From contig CAYNFQ010000001.1 of the NCBI GenBank assembly GCA_964396715.1, forward strand, positions 21,037-85,036: a stretch of DNA of 64,000 nt, given 5' to 3'. The notes under the pieces were generated by a model. That model saw only the letters and a program-made list of their open reading frames with translations, did not search any database and had not been told where the DNA came from. The position numbers and the translations under genes were made by a program. Positions 637-11,531 of the stretch are shown here, piece by piece. Source of the stretch: an uncultured Gammaproteobacteria bacterium. GTDB taxonomy: Bacteria; Patescibacteriota; Microgenomatia; Daviesbacterales; UBA10151. The number at the start of each line of letters is the position of its first letter. Position 1 is the stretch's first letter.

Positions 637-2145
637 ATGGCTTTAGAGGATTTACAAAAGGAAAGATTAAAGAAGTTAAAAAATATTCAAAGGTTGGGGA
701 TTAATCCTTATCCTTCAAAATCCAATCGTAAGCATACAATTTCCATTGCCCGGAAAATGATGGGTAAAAAGGTCACTGTTGCAGGCAGGATTAGATCACT
801 TCGTCCTCATGGAAAAATCACCTTTGCAGATATTGAAGATGCAACAGGCAAAATTCAACTATTTTTTTCTCAGGAAGAATTAACTGGTGAAAAATATGAG
901 TTTTTAACAAATTTGGATTTGGGGGATTTTATAGAATGTAGCGGTGAAATTTTTAAAACCCAAGCAGGAGAAATCTCTGTCAGAGTTTCTGATTTTAAAT
1001 TGCTCACAAAAAGTTTAAGGCCTTTGCCATCCAGCTGGTATGGATTAAAAGATGTGGAGGAAAGATACAGAAGAAGATATGTAGATCTTTTAATGAATCC
1101 TGTTGTTAAAGAAACCTTTATTAAGAGAACAAAAATTATCACTGCTGTGAGAGGATTTTTAGACCAAAGAGATTTTTTAGAAGTTGAGACCCCAACTTTA
1201 CAAGAAGTTTATGGAGGAGCAAATGCCAGACCATTTAAAACTCGCCATAATACTCTAGGTTATGATTTTTTTCTCAAAATTTCTGATGAACTATACTTAA
1301 AAAGATTAATTATAGGAGGATTCGAAAAGGTTTATGAAATAGATAAGGATTTCCGCAATGAAGGTATTGATAAATCTCATAATCCCGAGTTTACTATGAT
1401 GGAATGTTATTGGGCTTATGCAGATTATCAAGATATGATGAAATTGACAGAAGATCTTTATCAGGAAGTGGCTTCAAAAGTTTTAGGTACTACTAAAATC
1501 ACTTTTGGTAGTCATAAGATTGATCTAAAAGCGCCTTGGAAAAGAATTACCATGAAAGAAGCTATTAAAAAATATGCGGGTGTAGATATAGATAAATTAA
1601 CAGATCAAGAGATTAGGGCTTTGCTGAAAAAAAATAATCTGGAACTAGAGGATAAACCAACTTTGACTGGTGTGGCAGCAGGATTTAATAGAGGAGTGGC
1701 TATTGCTACTCTTTTTGAATTGGTTGAACCAAATCTTATTCAACCTACCTTTGTTTATGATTTTCCCAAAGAAACCACTGCTCTTTGTAAACAAAAAGAG
1801 TCACAACCCGATTTAATTGAAAGATTTGAGCCATATATTGCTGGATTTGAGGTAGGTAATGCCTACTCTGAGTTAAATGATCCAATTGTCCAAAAAGAAT
1901 TTTTTGAGGAGCAATTAAAAGCTGCCAAATCAGGAGATGAAGAAGCTCATCCTATGGATAAAGCTTATTTGGAAGCCATGGAATATGGCATACCCCCAAC
2001 AGGAGGTTTAGGATTGGGAATTGATAGAATGGTAATGCTACTGACTAATAACCCAAGTATTGCTGAAGTTATTTTATTTCCAACCCTCCGTCCGTCCCAT
2101 CCCGCAAGCGGGAAAGAAAAGAAAAGGAGAGTAATTACTGAATAA
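637..2145 (+). CDS. lysS: lysyl-tRNA synthetase, class II
   Basis: 502 aa with an N-terminal OB anticodon-binding domain and a class II core (FRNEG motif, GGLGLGIDRMVMLLT motif 3). A short C-terminal extension is encoded by a GC-rich palindromic segment. Confidence 0.95.
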   Translation: MALEDLQKERLKKLKNIQRLGINPYPSKSNRKHTISIARKMMGKKVTVAGRIRSLRPHGKITFADIEDATGKIQLFFSQEELTGEKYEFLTNLDLGDFIECSGEIFKTQAGEISVRVSDFKLLTKSLRPLPSSWYGLKDVEERYRRRYVDLLMNPVVKETFIKRTKIITAVRGFLDQRDFLEVETPTLQEVYGGANARPFKTRHNTLGYDFFLKISDELYLKRLIIGGFEKVYEIDKDFRNEGIDKSHNPEFTMMECYWAYADYQDMMKLTEDLYQEVASKVLGTTKITFGSHKIDLKAPWKRITMKEAIKKYAGVDIDKLTDQEIRALLKKNNLELEDKPTLTGVAAGFNRGVAIATLFELVEPNLIQPTFVYDFPKETTALCKQKESQPDLIERFEPYIAGFEVGNAYSELNDPIVQKEFFEEQLKAAKSGDEEAHPMDKAYLEAMEYGIPPTGGLGLGIDRMVMLLTNNPSIAEVILFPTLRPSHPASGKEKKRRVITE

Positions 2146-2185
2146 CAATTTATAGTACGTGCGACAAATTGTTATCATAAATATT

Positions 2186-2818
2186 ATGACTAGAGATGAA
2201 GCTTACAAATTAATGACAGAAATGCTTAAGAGCAAAAACTTGCAAAAGCATGGATTGGCTGTGGAAGCAGTAATGAGAGCGCTTTGTAAATATCTACATG
2301 ATCGTCATCCCCGACCCGATCGGGGATCCATAAATAATATGGATTCCCGTATTCGCGGGAATGACAATATGGAAGAATTTAATGAGGATGAGTGGGCAAT
2401 TGTGGGGTTACTTCATGATGCAGATTATGAATTGGTGGAAAAAGACCCAACTCGTCATACTTTAGTTACTGCAGAAAAATTAAGACCACTTGGAGTATCG
2501 GAGAGAATTATTGAAGGTATAAAAGCTCATCATGATGGAATAAAAGAAACCAGAGATAATTTAATGGAAAAAAGTGTATATGCAGCGGATGAATTATCTG
2601 GGCTGATTACAGCGGTGGCACTGGTGAGACCGGACAAAAAGTTAGCATCAGTTACTGTGGAATCAGTTATGAAAAAGTTTGACCAGAAAAGCTTTGCAGC
2701 TGGTGCAAAAAGAGAGCAGATAAAAGCTTGCGAGAAAGAGCTAAATATTCCTTTGGAAGAATTTGTGGGAATTGCTCTTAAAGCAATGCAGGGAATATCT
2801 GATGAATTGGGATTATGA
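2186..2818 (+). CDS. HD-superfamily metal-dependent phosphohydrolase (COG2316-like)
   Basis: Carries H..HD ... GLLHDADYE ... KAHH motifs typical of small archaeal/Thermotoga-type HD hydrolases. The ATG at 2186 (MTRDEAYKL) is preferred over the GTG at 2159. A 22-aa GC-rich insertion sits between the HD and LLHD motifs. Confidence 0.7.
   Translation: MTRDEAYKLMTEMLKSKNLQKHGLAVEAVMRALCKYLHDRHPRPDRGSINNMDSRIRGNDNMEEFNEDEWAIVGLLHDADYELVEKDPTRHTLVTAEKLRPLGVSERIIEGIKAHHDGIKETRDNLMEKSVYAADELSGLITAVALVRPDKKLASVTVESVMKKFDQKSFAAGAKREQIKACEKELNIPLEEFVGIALKAMQGISDELGL
2305..2362. repeat. GC-rich palindromic in-frame insertion (CCCGATCGGG and TCCCG-N6-CGGGA hairpins) inside the HD hydrolase gene
   Basis: Local GC is far above the surroundings. 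Two or three short hairpins encode a 22-aa loop insertion between the conserved HD and LLHD motifs. Confidence 0.55.
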
Positions 2819-3405
2819 AATTAAATGACCTTAAAAAAATATTAAAGGTTTTTTTAACGCTGCAATGGGCAAAGGAATTACCCCGTCAGGGTTTTATTGC
2901 CATGGGGTTTAAAAGAAATGAGGCGGATTCGGTGGCCGCACATTCTTTTTCCACTGCCCTTCTCTCTTATTTTCTGGCCAAGCAACTGAAGAAAGAAGGG
3001 CAGAAGGTAGATTGCGAAAAAGTTTTGAAAATGGCCTTGGTACATGATATTGGGGAGACAATAGTTGGGGATGTGGGGACTTTTGTTAAAGGTATGGCCG
3101 GAGGTGTTTTTAAAAATATTGAAGAAGAGGGAGTTAAAGCTTTGGTTTCCGGACTAGACTCTAAAGAAGAGATTATAAAATTGGTTGAAGAATATAATGA
3201 CAGAAAAACAATAGAAGCCAGAGTAGTTAAAGCAGCTGATAATTTAGATGCTTTGGCTCAAGCCAAAGGTGTACCCGGAGCGCAAGATGCGCTAAAATAT
3301 TTTAAACAGGTGTATCATATTACAAAATTTGATTGGCATAAAAAAGCAGTGGATCTAATTTTGTCAGGAGAGATAGAACCGGCCAGAGATTGGCAGGATC
3401 ACTAA
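2815..3405 (+). CDS. HD-domain 5'-deoxynucleotidase, YfbR-like
   Basis: HSFSTALL ... LVHDIGE ... AADNLDAL motifs match the YfbR/HD_3 family. A 4-bp overlap couples it to the upstream HD gene. Confidence 0.75.
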   Translation: MKLNDLKKILKVFLTLQWAKELPRQGFIAMGFKRNEADSVAAHSFSTALLSYFLAKQLKKEGQKVDCEKVLKMALVHDIGETIVGDVGTFVKGMAGGVFKNIEEEGVKALVSGLDSKEEIIKLVEEYNDRKTIEARVVKAADNLDALAQAKGVPGAQDALKYFKQVYHITKFDWHKKAVDLILSGEIEPARDWQDH

Positions 3406-3407
3406 CT

Positions 3408-4640
3408 ATGTTAGACATTAATTTCATAAGAGAAAATAAAGATAAGGTTAAAAAGTCTGTGGAGGCCAGAAAAGCTAACATAGATTTGGATAAATTACTC
3501 CAGTTGGATAGCCAAAGAAGAGAACTTATACAAAAGGTTGATGATTTAAGAGCCAAGAGAAATCAAGCTGCCCAAGCCAAAGATATAGAAACTGGTAAGA
3601 AAATAAAAGAAGAGTTGGGAGGATTAGAAAAAGAATTGGAGAATGTGGAAAAAGAGTGGAATATACTCATGCTTCAAGTTCCCAATATTCTAATGGATGA
3701 GGTGCCAATCGGAGATGCATCTAAAAACAAAGTTATCAGAAAAGAAGGCAGTCCGCCTAAATTTCCTTTTAAAATAAAAGACCATATCGCATTGGGAAAA
3801 AGTCTGGATATTATAGATTTTGACAGGGGAGTAAAGGTGGGAGGATTTAGGGGTTACTTCTTAAAAAACGAGGGAGCCAGGCTGCATTGGGCTGTATTAA
3901 ATTTTGCTTTGGATATAATTGGCCAAAAAGGTTTTCGAGTTATAGTTCCTCCTATTGTAAATAAAAGTTTGGCACTTTTAGGAGGAGGACAATTTCCCTG
4001 GTATGAGGAAGATACATACAAGTTAGGCGATGATGAATATTTGGTGGGAACAGCAGAAATTCCTTTGATGGCATTACATGCAGATGAGACTTTTGATATA
4101 AAAGATTTGCCTAAAAAATATGTAGCGCTCTCTGCTTGTTTCAGAACAGAGATTGGTTCTTATGGAAAGGATACGAAGGGACTGTATAGGGTACATGAGT
4201 TTTATAAAGTAGAACAAGTAATTTTATGTGAGGCTGATGAAAAGGAATCCTTAGGCTTTTTTGAAGATTTACAAGATAATGCAGAAGGGATTTTGCAAGA
4301 GCTTGGCCTTGCCTATCAAGTAGTTTGTTTGTCGTCACAAGATACCGGTAAAAAATCCGCTCTAACTTATGATATTGAAACTTGGATGCCGTCAAGAGAA
4401 AACTACGGTGAGACTCATTCCAATTCATATGTAGCGGATTTTCAAACCAGAAGATTAAAGATTAAATATCGCGATACAGATGGGCAAACTAAATTTTGTC
4501 ATGCCTTAAATAATACTGCCATTGCCTCTCCCAGGATTTTAATTGCCCTGCTGGAGAACTTCCAACTTGAGGATGGCTCCATCAAAATCCCGGAAGTTTT
4601 ACAAAAATATACCGGATTCTCCGAAATTAAACCCAAATAA
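3408..4640 (+). CDS. serS: seryl-tRNA synthetase
   Basis: N-terminal coiled-coil arm, then a class II core (FRTE, GLYRVHEF, SNSYVADFQTRRL). The ATG at 3408 is preferred over the TTG at 3390. Confidence 0.95.
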   Translation: MLDINFIRENKDKVKKSVEARKANIDLDKLLQLDSQRRELIQKVDDLRAKRNQAAQAKDIETGKKIKEELGGLEKELENVEKEWNILMLQVPNILMDEVPIGDASKNKVIRKEGSPPKFPFKIKDHIALGKSLDIIDFDRGVKVGGFRGYFLKNEGARLHWAVLNFALDIIGQKGFRVIVPPIVNKSLALLGGGQFPWYEEDTYKLGDDEYLVGTAEIPLMALHADETFDIKDLPKKYVALSACFRTEIGSYGKDTKGLYRVHEFYKVEQVILCEADEKESLGFFEDLQDNAEGILQELGLAYQVVCLSSQDTGKKSALTYDIETWMPSRENYGETHSNSYVADFQTRRLKIKYRDTDGQTKFCHALNNTAIASPRILIALLENFQLEDGSIKIPEVLQKYTGFSEIKPK

Positions 4641-4911: not shown

Positions 4912-6033
4912 TTAAGGGGTAGTTTGCTGCTGTTGTCTTTGTCTGATCAAATCTGCTGCTGAGGTGGCTTGTTGTGTTCCCTCCAGCTGGCCAAAGTTGG
5001 CAGAATCTGTTTCGGCTGCCGGTGTGGCCTGAGGAAGTGGAGTTGCAACAGGTGGAGGAGGTTTAATTTGAGAAGTTTGAGTCTGAGTTGTGGCCGGCAC
5101 AGATGAGGTTTGAGGGGTCTGGCCTAACCCTAAGATAAAGTAGGCAGACGCCCCTGCCACCAGAATCAAAAGTCCAATGCCAATCCCAATCAGCCATTTT
5201 GGTATGCCTTTTCTTTCCTCGGTCGGAAGACTGGGAATTTCCGCTGAAGCAGTATTGGGGACAATTAAAGTTTCTGCAGTGGGTGGTTGTCCTGCTTCTG
5301 AGGGAGTTTGCTCCAAAGAGCCGTTATTGGATATCAGATGGGACAGATCCGTTGGTACGCCTTGAGCCGTCTCTTGAGCGGGTTGAGGTGATGGTGACCA
5401 TTCAGGCGGACCTGCCTGAATGGGATCATCGATAGCGGGAGGTTGCATAGGCGCGCCCAAGGGATTATCCAAAGGAGAAAGATGAGGCTGGAGGGGTGGT
5501 GTAAAGGTTGGAGTAGGTTCTGAGGGGGTTGGCTCTGATTGAGGAGGAGTTGGGGGTGGAACACTCCATGTTGAGGTATCCTGGGGAAAGCTTGTGGATT
5601 CTGGTTGAGCTGTAGCCGGCTGGGGCCAAGTCTGACTTGGCTGGGGGGAGGTCGGGAAAACAGGATTTTGCGGGTACATTTGAGGATTGGCTGATAAATC
5701 CGGTTGCTCTCTTGACAGTGGGGTTGGTTCCGATTGAAAAGGAGTTGGTTCCGGTGCCGGGGGAATAGGCGAAGTTTGTGGTACAGTCCAGGGAGATAGT
5801 GGGGTTGGGTTAGTTTGAGGCTGTTCCCAAGCTGAGGAGGGTTGGGATGGAGAAGGTTGGGCGCTTTGAGTAGGCCAAGCCGGCTGAGGATTTGGCATAG
5901 GAGGTGTAAAAATAGGCTGTGCTGGTGTGGATGTAAACGGATTGGTATCTTGTGGAGCTGGAGGAACGCTACCTGGAACAGGCGCTCTATTTTGCGGATC
6001 AGTGGGATTATTTGGACTGTTTGAATTATCCAT
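4912..6033 (-). CDS. proline/threonine/glutamine-rich bitopic membrane protein
   Basis: 373 aa. About 280 aa of low-complexity P/S/T/Q-rich sequence, one TM helix ([22 protein letters not shown]), and a T/Q/P-rich C-terminal tail. Divergent from secA. Confidence 0.55.
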
Positions 6034-10090: not shown

Positions 10091-11531
10091 TATTGGTATT
10101 TGCTCCTGAGCAGGCATCTTTCATTAACTCATGCGAGGGGATTTCTTGAGGCGTAATTACTCCGATGTGGCCAAACTTAACTTTTACCTCCGCTTTTGCA
10201 TATTCATCAGGGATTACTATGGAATAAACCGGACTGCCTCTGCCCGCAACGGCAATATGGGCGTTTTTTAAATAGAAAAAGTAGCGAAAACCCGTATTCT
10301 CCCCAAAAGAGGTAATATAATTTATGGAAAAGCAGGGGAATTTTTTAACCCTTGCATCATCAACAATAAAGTCAACAACACTTTTTTTCTCCAGATAACC
10401 CTTGTTGTAATAGTTTTGTGTTGTAAGAAAATAAAAATTTTTAAGAGGTATTAACAAAAGTAACGCCAATACCAAAATTTCTTTTTTAAATCGTCTCAAC
10501 AGATAATAAAACGCCAGAGCAATACCTGCAATAAACATTACGTTTGTATTGGTAAAATAATATTCCGAAACAGGAGCAGAAGACAGGGAAAAAAATAAAA
10601 TGGGGCCAATGATCCAGGCATAAAGGGAAACTGTTTCTTTAAAAGAGATTAATTTTGTTTTTATTAACAATATTCCCGATAATAAAAATGCTGCTGTAAA
10701 TAATAAATTGTTTGTTAAATTGAAGGAATTTGGCGCAAAAAGCAGCTGATTGATATTTTTAGTAATCATTCCCAAAACAAGCTGGATTCTATAAAATCCG
10801 GTTGGTCCGCCTTCTTGGCGGAAAGTAAAATTTTCAATTAAGCTCAAGGTTTGAATAAAGTTATGTTTGAATTCAAATAAAATTAAAGGTATGGATGTTA
10901 TAAAAAGAGAAATCAAAAATATTGATATTTGTTTAAAATTCGGAATTTTTCTGGATAAAAATATTGCGGCAGGGACTGCCAAAAGGGTGGGGATTAAGGC
11001 AATATGAATATGCCAGATAAGTCCAATTAAAATCCCCAGCAACCAAAATATGTAAAATTTTCCGCGGGAGAGCATGATAAGTGTATAAAAATACCAGACA
11101 GCCCAAAGTGATGTTGTGATGGTTGGGACAACCCAGCGGTCTGAACCAACTGAAGTCAGAAGCACTGCGTATAAGAATGCCCCTATTAAGCCCACTCCTT
11201 TTTTAAAAATTCTGGAAAAAACCCAGTAGTAACTTATTGTTGTTGTCAAACCTAGTAAAATTGCGAATAAAGCTGCCCCAATAGGATCCATGCGGGTTAT
11301 CATAAAAAAGGGGATTAATAAATAATAAAAGATGGGTCCGATATAAATTCCCGGGGCAGAAGTCAGCTGACCAATCAGTCTGGGGTGGTGATTTATTACT
11401 ATATCCTTAACAATCCAGGAATACAAATCTCCATCATGGGCAAATTCAAACCGCTCCACCACCTGATAAGTTCTGAAAAAAAATGATAAAAGAAGGATGA
11501 AACCCAAAAGTAAAATTTGAGATCGTATCAT
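10059..11531 (-). CDS. GT-C fold polytopic membrane glycosyltransferase-like protein ('DxxD/RD...GPxYYY' paralog family)
   Basis: 490 aa, 10 or more TM helices. The first extracytoplasmic loop reads FAHDGDLY...IGQLTSAPGIYIGPIFYYLL, and the C-terminal extracytoplasmic domain resembles that of the 13278, 15529 and 17012 genes. Confidence 0.6.
   Translation of the reverse strand: MIRSQILLLGFILLLSFFFRTYQVVERFEFAHDGDLYSWIVKDIVINHHPRLIGQLTSAPGIYIGPIFYYLLIPFFMITRMDPIGAALFAILLGLTTTISYYWVFSRIFKKGVGLIGAFLYAVLLTSVGSDRWVVPTITTSLWAVWYFYTLIMLSRGKFYIFWLLGILIGLIWHIHIALIPTLLAVPAAIFLSRKIPNFKQISIFLISLFITSIPLILFEFKHNFIQTLSLIENFTFRQEGGPTGFYRIQLVLGMITKNINQLLFAPNSFNLTNNLLFTAAFLLSGILLIKTKLISFKETVSLYAWIIGPILFFSLSSAPVSEYYFTNTNVMFIAGIALAFYYLLRRFKKEILVLALLLLIPLKNFYFLTTQNYYNKGYLEKKSVVDFIVDDARVKKFPCFSINYITSFGENTGFRYFFYLKNAHIAVAGRGSPVYSIVIPDEYAKAEVKVKFGHIGVITPQEIPSHELMKDACSGANTNITDPLFGYVE

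Follow-up and report, generated by a model that had tools for sequence, protein, structure and literature searches.

An inverted dimer of SRM-type (CGTC-REP) hairpins inserted in frame in an HD hydrolase gene of a Candidatus Daviesbacteria contig

Background

The lysyl-tRNA synthetase gene (lysS) and the HD-domain hydrolase gene that follows it in a 64-kb stretch of contig CAYNFQ010000001.1 (hereafter the window, meaning the whole stretch analysed) each carry a short GC-rich palindromic segment, and the question raised by this locus is whether these segments are selfish repeats that entered housekeeping genes without breaking the reading frame and, if so, to which family they belong. The segment in the HD gene (2303-2366, hereafter the HD element) is the main subject of this report. 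According to the source names of its homologs, the window is a Candidatus Daviesbacteria contig, of the Candidate Phyla Radiation (CPR) / Patescibacteria lineage. The protein encoded by lysS (LysRS) was found in exact form on JACPUL010000012.1 (236,765 bp, assembly GCA_016192255.1) and on five Logan contigs that were assembled independently. Because the HD element is identical in these six assemblies (one from NCBI and five independent Logan runs), an assembly error is unlikely. The original prediction located the palindromes TCCCGCAAGCGGGAA at 2100-2114, TCCCGTATTCGCGGGAA at 2345-2361 and CCCGATCGGG at 2315-2324, in segments with a GC content above the local background; all three strings lie at these positions, and local GC is 0.63 (2080-2119) and 0.50 (2300-2339) against a window mean of 0.37.

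Two bodies of published work bear on these segments. The CGTC-tagged REPs (repetitive extragenic palindromes) are defined by a CGTC, TGTC or CCTC tag, a stem of 8-9 bp beginning with AT, a loop of 4-5 nt and a tail close to CCA, and occur mostly as dimers; their Neisseria members are the dRS3 repeats and their Rickettsia conorii members are RPE-6 and RPE-4, dimers inserted in frame within genes encode 20-30 amino acids (aa), and neither a dedicated transposase nor an associated enzyme was found (Di Nocera et al. 2013, BMC Genomics 14:522, PMC3733652). Ssn is a single-domain GIY-YIG nuclease of 94 aa, whose binding sites are named NTS in Neisseria and SRM in general; it binds and cleaves single-stranded DNA only, a few nucleotides 5' of the hairpin, and the critical positions of the SRM are the three nucleotides 5' of the palindrome (cleavage) and the cytosine directly 3' of it (binding) (Chenal et al. 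2025, Nat Commun 16:2388, PMC11893778). The ssn genes are typically flanked by SRMs, and the SRM-ssn-SRM arrangement looks like an insertion sequence (IS) (PMC11893778).

An in-frame insertion in the HD hydrolase gene

Read as DNA, the HD element is the 64-bp sequence C-GTCAT-CCCCGA-cccga-TCGGGG-AT-CCA-t-aaataata-TGG-AT-TCCCG-tattcg-CGGGA-AT-GAC-A (2303-2366). The gene and the parts of the element are as follows.

2186..2818, + strand: HD-domain phosphohydrolase, 210 aa from the ATG at 2186 (Pfam HD, 2.8e-06)
2303..2366, no strand: whole in-frame element, an inverted (tags-outward) dimer of two SRM / CGTC-REP hairpins; encodes (R)HPRPDRGSINNMDSRIRGND
2303..2331, + strand: left SRM monomer, CGTC-ATCCCCGA-cccga-TCGGGGAT-CCAT; matches the published SRM degenerate sequence
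2328..2342, no strand: central spacer palindrome CCATA-AATAA-TATGG, made of the two monomer tails; middle hairpin of a predicted three-way junction
2339..2366, - strand: right SRM monomer, TGTC-ATTCCCG-cgaata-CGGGAAT-CCAT; matches the SRM sequence, and dRS3 with 0 mismatches

The two monomers are oppositely oriented, each reading on its own strand as (C/T)GTC, a hairpin and then CCA. The canonical stem of the first hairpin is formed by ATCCCCGA (2307-2314) with TCGGGGAT (2320-2327), around the loop CCCGA; the palindrome CCCGATCGGG singled out by the original prediction is present, as an alternative pairing within this hairpin. The ends of the element, GTCAT (2304-2308) and ATGAC (2361-2365), pair with each other, and over a longer span (GTCATCCCCG... 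and ...CGGGAATGAC) they match in inverted orientation at 9 of 12 positions. When folded as single-stranded DNA (66 nt), the element is predicted to form a three-way junction (-17.9 kcal/mol, z = -4.1). A search of the 64 kb for TCCCG-N2-8-CGGGA, which had been proposed as a check, returned both segments, at 2100 and 2345, and no third copy, for a shuffle mean of 0.06 and none of 100 shuffles reaching two.

At 210 aa, the HD protein is 16 aa longer than its commonest ortholog (194 aa, the length of most of the 120 close orthologs, which are 70-88% identical) and ~27 aa longer than homologs from ~20 other phyla, which have ~183 aa among the matches listed. Homologs numbered 2690 at E<=1e-10. The scan of genome contigs with the HD alignment returned, among the matches listed, mostly distant phyla and three close relatives, and a metagenome scan returned 19 loci. 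The only variable region of the close orthologs lies between ...YLK and EF... and ranges from 20 to 55 residues; it contains the insertion site, which comes after the conserved His (in ...QKHGLAVE...) and before the LLHD motif. In an AlphaFold2 model of the protein (mean pLDDT 85.8), the inserted residues 41-60 are coil, with pLDDT ~50, between a helix at 17-40 and a helical region at 61-76.

The HD element, which has no counterpart in most orthologs, is thus a lineage-specific in-frame insertion in a disordered loop. The original prediction had described a 22-aa loop inserted between the HD and LLHD motifs: its place, after the conserved His and before LLHD, stands, and its size is a net 16 aa (48 nt) over the 194-aa form; the element itself has 62-64 nt (~20-21 codons). 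Alignment of orthologs, the proposed check for this gene, gave a lineage-specific insert and shorter homologs in other phyla. A palindromic repeat that lies in frame in a protein-coding gene and is absent from orthologs is what characterises a Rickettsia palindromic element (RPE), and the proposed likeness to such selfish repeats therefore holds for the HD gene.

The K/R-H-P-E-L loop of the 194-aa orthologs, the CATCC of which resembles the element end, was considered as a remnant of an old element and rejected, its codons varying synonymously (CAC CCG GAA TTA, CAT CCT GAG CTA, CAT CCA GAG ATG).

Membership in the SRM family

The published SRM search pattern, HGTCWYN(0-2)YYVSBRHN(0-5)WNVSBRGN(0-2)RNCYNB (PMC11893778), has exactly two matches in the 64 kb, at 2303-2331(+) and 2339-2366(-), against a dinucleotide-shuffle mean of 0.07. 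Both monomers fit the CGTC-REP description, the left one with its CGTC tag, AT-initial stem of 8 bp, loop of 5 nt and CCA tail; the right monomer (TGTC tag, AT-initial stem of 7 bp, loop of 6 nt, CCA tail) goes slightly beyond the stated ranges. A hand alignment of the right monomer with the NTS consensus CGTCATTCCCGCGMAVGCGGGAATCYRG gives 4 differences in 28 positions; this monomer also contains the dRS3 consensus ATTCCC-N8-GGGAAT in exact form at 2343-2362. Since the dRS3 family was defined in Neisseria, the latter match denotes a shared motif and not membership in the Neisseria repeat population.

Similar hairpins were found well beyond this contig. At least 120 stretches of the viral-contig collection contain the right-type hairpin, GATTCCCG-N4-8-CGGGAATGAC; among the matches listed, the GC of the hosts spans 0.32 to 0.72, as many as 13 copies share one stretch, and several copies stand in a two-hairpin arrangement like that of the window. 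The left variant, GTCATCCCCGA-N-TCGGGGATC, is rarer, with 15 other viral-contig stretches, several copies per contig and usually a CCAT tail. The dimer architecture of the window was found again in two orthologs (L087 and L212) and in three unrelated contigs (L091, L121 and L243). When 13 monomers from the window, the orthologs and unrelated contigs were aligned, the GTC 5' of the stem and the C 3' of it were invariant, 99% of the stem cells paired, and 4 of 8 pairs showed compensatory changes, a result that none of 500 shuffles reached. No GTAG tag stands next to either HD hairpin. By these sequence criteria, both hairpins of the HD element belong to the SRM / CGTC-tagged REP family.

Link to GIY-YIG nuclease genes

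In two related contigs, elements of the HD loop and nuclease-bearing units occur side by side. In L213, a GIY-YIG open reading frame (ORF; 1873-2193) lies directly past the stop codon of the HD gene, inside a unit of 393 nt, and the 99-nt element inserted in frame in the same HD gene consists of the left ~45 nt (40 of 43 identical) and the right end of this unit. In L090, the ends of a 408-nt GIY-YIG unit match a 56-nt intergenic copy at 23 of 24 and 24 of 26 nt, the ends of the in-frame copy being similar. By these shared ends, the short copies are ORF-less derivatives of nuclease-bearing units. Three further loci (L140, L204 and L093), fetched by the hairpin pattern only, have GIY-YIG ORFs with near-canonical NTS hairpins on both sides, and the L213 and L204 nucleases are 34% identical (E = 5e-22). 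The L213 nuclease has more than 1,100 relatives, many of them named from Daviesbacteria, Curtissbacteria, Roizmanbacteria and other Patescibacteria, a group in which the family is abundant; its nearest solved structures in the PDB are UPF0213 GIY-YIG proteins, all of them structural-genomics entries.

A Y1_Tnp gene (IS200/RAYT-like, with a weak Pfam match) was recorded in the related Daviesbacteria contig L215 (4100-4747, minus strand); it is not next to any tagged hairpin.

Variation at the same site among relatives

Among orthologs that are 75-88% identical, at least 8 different hairpin elements were found at one site of the HD gene. Peptide signatures of the ...ATGAC end (...RND, GND, QND, GDD) occur in 17-21 of the 106 classified orthologs, in at least 8 sequence types. 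The contents of the HD loop in the relatives are as follows.

L087: 61-nt dimer, stems ATTCCGCA and ATTCCCGC
L212: stems ATCCTGAA and ATTCCGAA
L214: stem ATTCTGGC
L090: 107-nt long-stem type
L213: 99-nt type
L088, L216: solo right halves
L089, L007, L218, L220, L223, L225: no element

The left end of the element falls at one and the same codon (C|GTCAT, Arg-His) in five lineages, namely the window, L087, L212, L090 and L214. The closest relative with DNA, L211 (GCA_964649615.1; LysRS 88% and HD 86% identical), has no tagged hairpin. In ~205 kb of Daviesbacteria-type loci, a sample that is biased in being centred on the HD gene, nearly all tagged hairpins lie in the HD loop or within the first few bases past the HD stop codon.

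Other palindromes occur in the same loop. L211 has a perfect untagged palindrome, TATACCACGGCCGTGGTATA (10119-10138), at the HD loop position (z = -2.7 as single-stranded DNA), and untagged GCCTTGCAAGGC...GCCTTGG palindromes lie in the HD loop of L215, L222 and L224; none of these four fits the SRM family.

A minimal double-tagged unit, TGTCATCCCCGCATACGCGGGAATGAC, in which one hairpin has GTCAT/ATGAC on both sides, was found in L228 (5668-5693), a few bases past the HD stop. Because elements of L228, L090 and L213 sit past the stop codon, the 3' end of the HD gene is a second favoured position.

The scan for GTCAT...ATGAC end pairs was run at a setting looser than 11/14, a cut-off that missed the HD element itself. 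Longer elements with these bounds (86-189 nt) were observed near HD homologs in L025 (2913-3096 and 8114-8209), L031 (6833-7021) and L068 (6228-6313), of which the hosts are Terriglobia, Anaerolineae and Acidobacteriota, and a degraded GIY-YIG fragment with the end ...GGTCAGGATGAC lies in L074 (7683-7934). The superfamily is therefore present in many phyla of the sample.

The lysS segment

The features of the second segment, ~200-250 nt 5' of the HD dimer, are as follows.

637..2145, + strand: lysS, class II lysyl-tRNA synthetase, 502 aa (Pfam tRNA-synt_2, 4.8e-96, and OB anticodon domain)
2095..2115, + strand: in-frame insertion in the C-terminal tail of lysS, 21 nt, TCCCATCCCGCAAGCGGGAAA, codons SHPASGK; boundaries ambiguous by a few nt
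2100..2113, no strand: GC hairpin TCCCGC-AA-GCGGGA in the lysS insertion; SRM-like core, no GTCAT tag

The insertion, located between ...CGTCC(G) and GAAAAG..., is absent from the DNA of L089 and L212. The original prediction had read this segment as a 16-aa C-terminal extension of LysRS; compared with L089, it is an insertion of 7 aa, the Lys-rich tail (EKK...) being ancestral and the LysRS orthologs ending in P-E-K-K-K. The residues S[HR]PASGK were found in 2 of 120 LysRS orthologs, that of the window (P0121) and one other, on L211 (P0122, with a single base difference), which implies that the insertion was in place before these two lineages separated. The core of the insertion, TCCCGC..GCGGGAA, is similar to the NTS stem. 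By itself the hairpin folds weakly (-4.4 kcal/mol, z = -1.8). The exact insert GTCCCRTCCCGCAAGCGGGAAA has no match in the viral-contig collection, and no template for the hairpin (>=10-mers, both strands) was found in the window.

The closeness of this insertion to the HD dimer argues for a connection between the two, the chance of a second match so near being ~1 in 2,000 by a rough estimate from the shuffle expectation. It is an older event, shared with one sister genome, and probably a degraded single hairpin of the SRM kind, although the latter is not established; a degraded SRM monomer and a local origin are both possible for this segment.

At the 3' end of lysS in L009 (~3950-3990), a more distant relative, an unrelated GC-rich hairpin, TCGGCCAAAGGCCGA (RSAKGRS), follows ...LRPE at the same place as the window insertion. 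A CGTC/CCGT duplication adjoins the hairpin in the window.

Origin of the HD element

We consider it likely that the HD element is a non-autonomous copy, similar to a MITE (miniature inverted-repeat transposable element), of the SRM-ssn-SRM type, i.e. two inverted SRM hairpins without a nuclease gene between them. Full-length units carry a GIY-YIG nuclease of ~95 aa, and these units and their ORF-less derivatives would be copied to new sites via single-strand intermediates, with Ssn as the presumed agent of mobilisation. The surviving copies would be in-frame copies in tolerant places, which avoid the frame (one of three, ...GAATGAC) where the ATGAC end reads TGA. The tolerant place here would be the disordered loop between two helices, and the element would now be translated as ~20 extra residues. 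Across Daviesbacteria lineages, the HD loop has probably been struck, or its content replaced, repeatedly, and the locus would then be a preferred target. We accordingly put forward, as a tentative proposal that may well prove wrong, that the HD loop and a few hundred bases around the lysS-HD junction are a site at which SRM-ssn-SRM units and their ORF-less derivatives preferentially land or are replaced in Daviesbacteria.

Several observations weigh against the derivation of the HD element from mobile SRM-ssn-SRM units. Neither a second copy of either HD hairpin variant nor a GIY-YIG gene was found in ~73 kb, made up of the 64-kb window and the 9.4 kb upstream of it; the propagation within this genome that the original prediction had supposed is thus not seen in the DNA searched, neither a multi-copy state nor mobility is shown for this genome, and the evidence for mobility comes from relatives. 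The transposition of an SRM unit has never been demonstrated experimentally, Chenal et al. noting the IS-like architecture only (PMC11893778). No direct repeat, hence no visible target-site duplication, stands at the flanks of the element (GATC|...|AATA). The difference between the net gain of 48 nt and the 62-64 nt of the element means that the old loop lost ~14 nt or that these overlap the element ends, and the exact insertion event is not reconstructable. The CPR nucleases were assigned by Pfam PF01541, NCBIfam gives no specific family, and their membership in cd10448 is putative. Finally, the lysS hairpin (a TCCCGCAAGCGGGA-type unit) falls outside the SRM pattern and lacks the GTCAT tag, so that its identity as the same kind of element is unproven.

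An unlikely alternative to recurrent insertion of mobile units is a single ancient insertion in the ancestor of the Daviesbacteria clade, followed by vertical descent with compensatory substitutions and partial deletions, in the manner of the 'proliferation and deterioration' of RPEs. It would account for the shared codon at the left end in the window, L087, L212, L090 and L214, for a loop that is ~11 aa longer throughout the clade than in L230, and for what look like products of deterioration, namely the solo right halves of L088 and L216 and the possibly decayed ends of L217. Orthologs that are 12-21% divergent in protein nevertheless differ at three or more fully compensated stem pairs, some have wholly different elements of 62, 99 and 107 nt, and fresh ORF-bearing copies lie beside the HD gene. 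The closest relatives (P0006, P0010 and P0011) are moreover without a tagged hairpin, and the ancestral K/R-H-P-E-L codons vary synonymously like ordinary coding sequence.

Rather improbable, too, is a formation of the palindromes on the spot, by template switching and slippage at a fragile or tolerant HD loop and lysS tail, with no mobile element involved. The monomers of the window match, loop and tail included, multi-copy families of unrelated contigs, they have the invariant GTC and C that Ssn requires, and units with an ORF and the same ends adjoin in-frame copies; in addition, the window has no copy of the lysS insert that could have served as its template. Such a process nonetheless fits the untagged palindromes in the HD loop (TATACCACGGCCGTGGTATA in L211, the GCCTTGCAAGGC type in L215, L222 and L224) and perhaps the lysS hairpin, which is untagged, has no other copy and stands beside the CGTC/CCGT duplication, at a position that an unrelated GC hairpin occupies in L009; in L212, moreover, the ancestral H-P-E-L codons and the left arm of the hairpin fall together. 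The tagged multi-copy variants are not accounted for in this way.

That the hairpins instead serve the host by regulating the lysS-HD operon at the RNA level (through attenuation, stabilisation or a pause in translation) is very improbable, despite the strong predicted folding (z = -4.1), the stems kept through compensatory change, the presence of two hairpins within 250 nt at a gene junction and the one terminator-like match (minus strand, 2362-2343), as the element is missing from most orthologs and elsewhere replaced by unrelated sequences, neither hairpin is followed by a T-run on the coding strand, an Rfam search of 1900-2600 at a permissive threshold gave chance-level matches only, and the family is dispersed as a repeat over many phyla, with a known partner protein that binds single-stranded DNA and not RNA.

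Neighbouring genes

The gene order is lysS, the HD hydrolase gene, a HD_3/YfbR-like gene and serS. The HD protein has no specific NCBIfam family.

2815-3405: HD_3/YfbR-like protein, 3' of the HD hydrolase gene

A class I LysRS gene (PF01921) lies directly 5' of the HD gene in L087 (1436-3004), L088 (1432-2997) and L090 (2-259), and a class II LysRS gene is at the same place in the window (637-2145), L089, L211 and L215; one synthetase class has thus been displaced by the other with conservation of the position. Fusions of LysRS and HD (PF00152 + PF01966) of ~690 aa, with a low-complexity linker, were found in P0217, P0227, P0230, P0236 and P0237, which suggests a functional link between LysRS and the HD hydrolase. 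Dinucleoside polyphosphates made by LysRS as substrate of the HD hydrolase are one possibility, which is speculative.

On the minus strand of the window (4912-6033), an ORF of 373 aa has an extremely high content of Pro, Thr, Gln and Ser, and one hydrophobic segment near the C-terminal third; no Pfam family is recorded for it, and the position of the homologous ORF is retained in relatives.

Comparison with known systems and significance

The HD element resembles the NTS/SsnA system of Neisseria in its SRM pattern and its conserved GTC and C, and related contigs have the SRM-GIY-YIG-SRM arrangement. It differs in lying inside a coding sequence of a CPR bacterium, in the stem of its left monomer (ATCCCCGA), in that no ssn gene was found in the ~73 kb searched here, and in apparent copy number, with 2 monomers in 73 kb (a partial sample of the genome) where the genomes of Neisseria, Rickettsia and Wolbachia each have hundreds. 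With the GTAG-tagged REPs / BIMEs and their RAYTs (IS200-like Y1 transposases), the family to which it belongs shares short GC-rich hairpins with a conserved, unpaired tetranucleotide, inverted dimers, an enzyme gene between hairpins of its own and an action on single-stranded DNA; it lacks the GTAG tag, and the partner is a GIY-YIG nuclease instead of a Y1 transposase. RPE-1, which Ogata et al. are said to have described in 2000, is reportedly a selfish palindromic DNA of 100-150 bp, restricted to Rickettsia and devoid of GTCAT-tagged short hairpins, that inserts in frame in housekeeping genes at surface-exposed tolerant positions and later decays; the likeness lies in the in-frame insertion in a housekeeping gene, and in sequence RPE-1 and the window element are unrelated.

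With the CGTC-tagged REPs, the element shares the CGTC/TGTC tag, the AT-initial stem, the loop of ~5 nt, the CCA tail, the dimers and the in-frame intragenic copies. These repeats were described in Proteobacteria, Chlorobi, Bacteroidetes, Spirochaetes and Thermotogae, and not in Patescibacteria (PMC3733652). The link to RPE-4 and RPE-6 is by way of the equation of these with CGTC-4 and CGTC-1 made by Di Nocera et al. (PMC3733652), and not by way of Rickettsia sequences.

The repeat family and its in-frame insertions having been described before, the finding does not in itself amount to new biology. With it, the range of the SRM / CGTC-REP family and of its GIY-YIG partner extends to CPR bacteria, the genomes of which are small and tightly packed. 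It also yields a comparative series of unusual clarity, in which one codon of a housekeeping gene bears at least 8 hairpin elements across close relatives, as well as two related contigs where a short copy and its nuclease-bearing parent stand side by side. The recurrence at the same site is the most interesting part: it makes the mobility of Ssn units, and with it the way in which these hairpins spread, testable with existing metagenomes. If the HD loop and its surroundings are indeed a preferred landing site, the different elements at one codon and the adjacent nuclease-bearing copies would be natural insertion polymorphisms, and the Ssn/SRM units would be active, site-selective mobile (or homing-like) elements. 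This would supply the 'missing transposase' of the CGTC REPs and explain how RPE-like repeats enter coding sequences.

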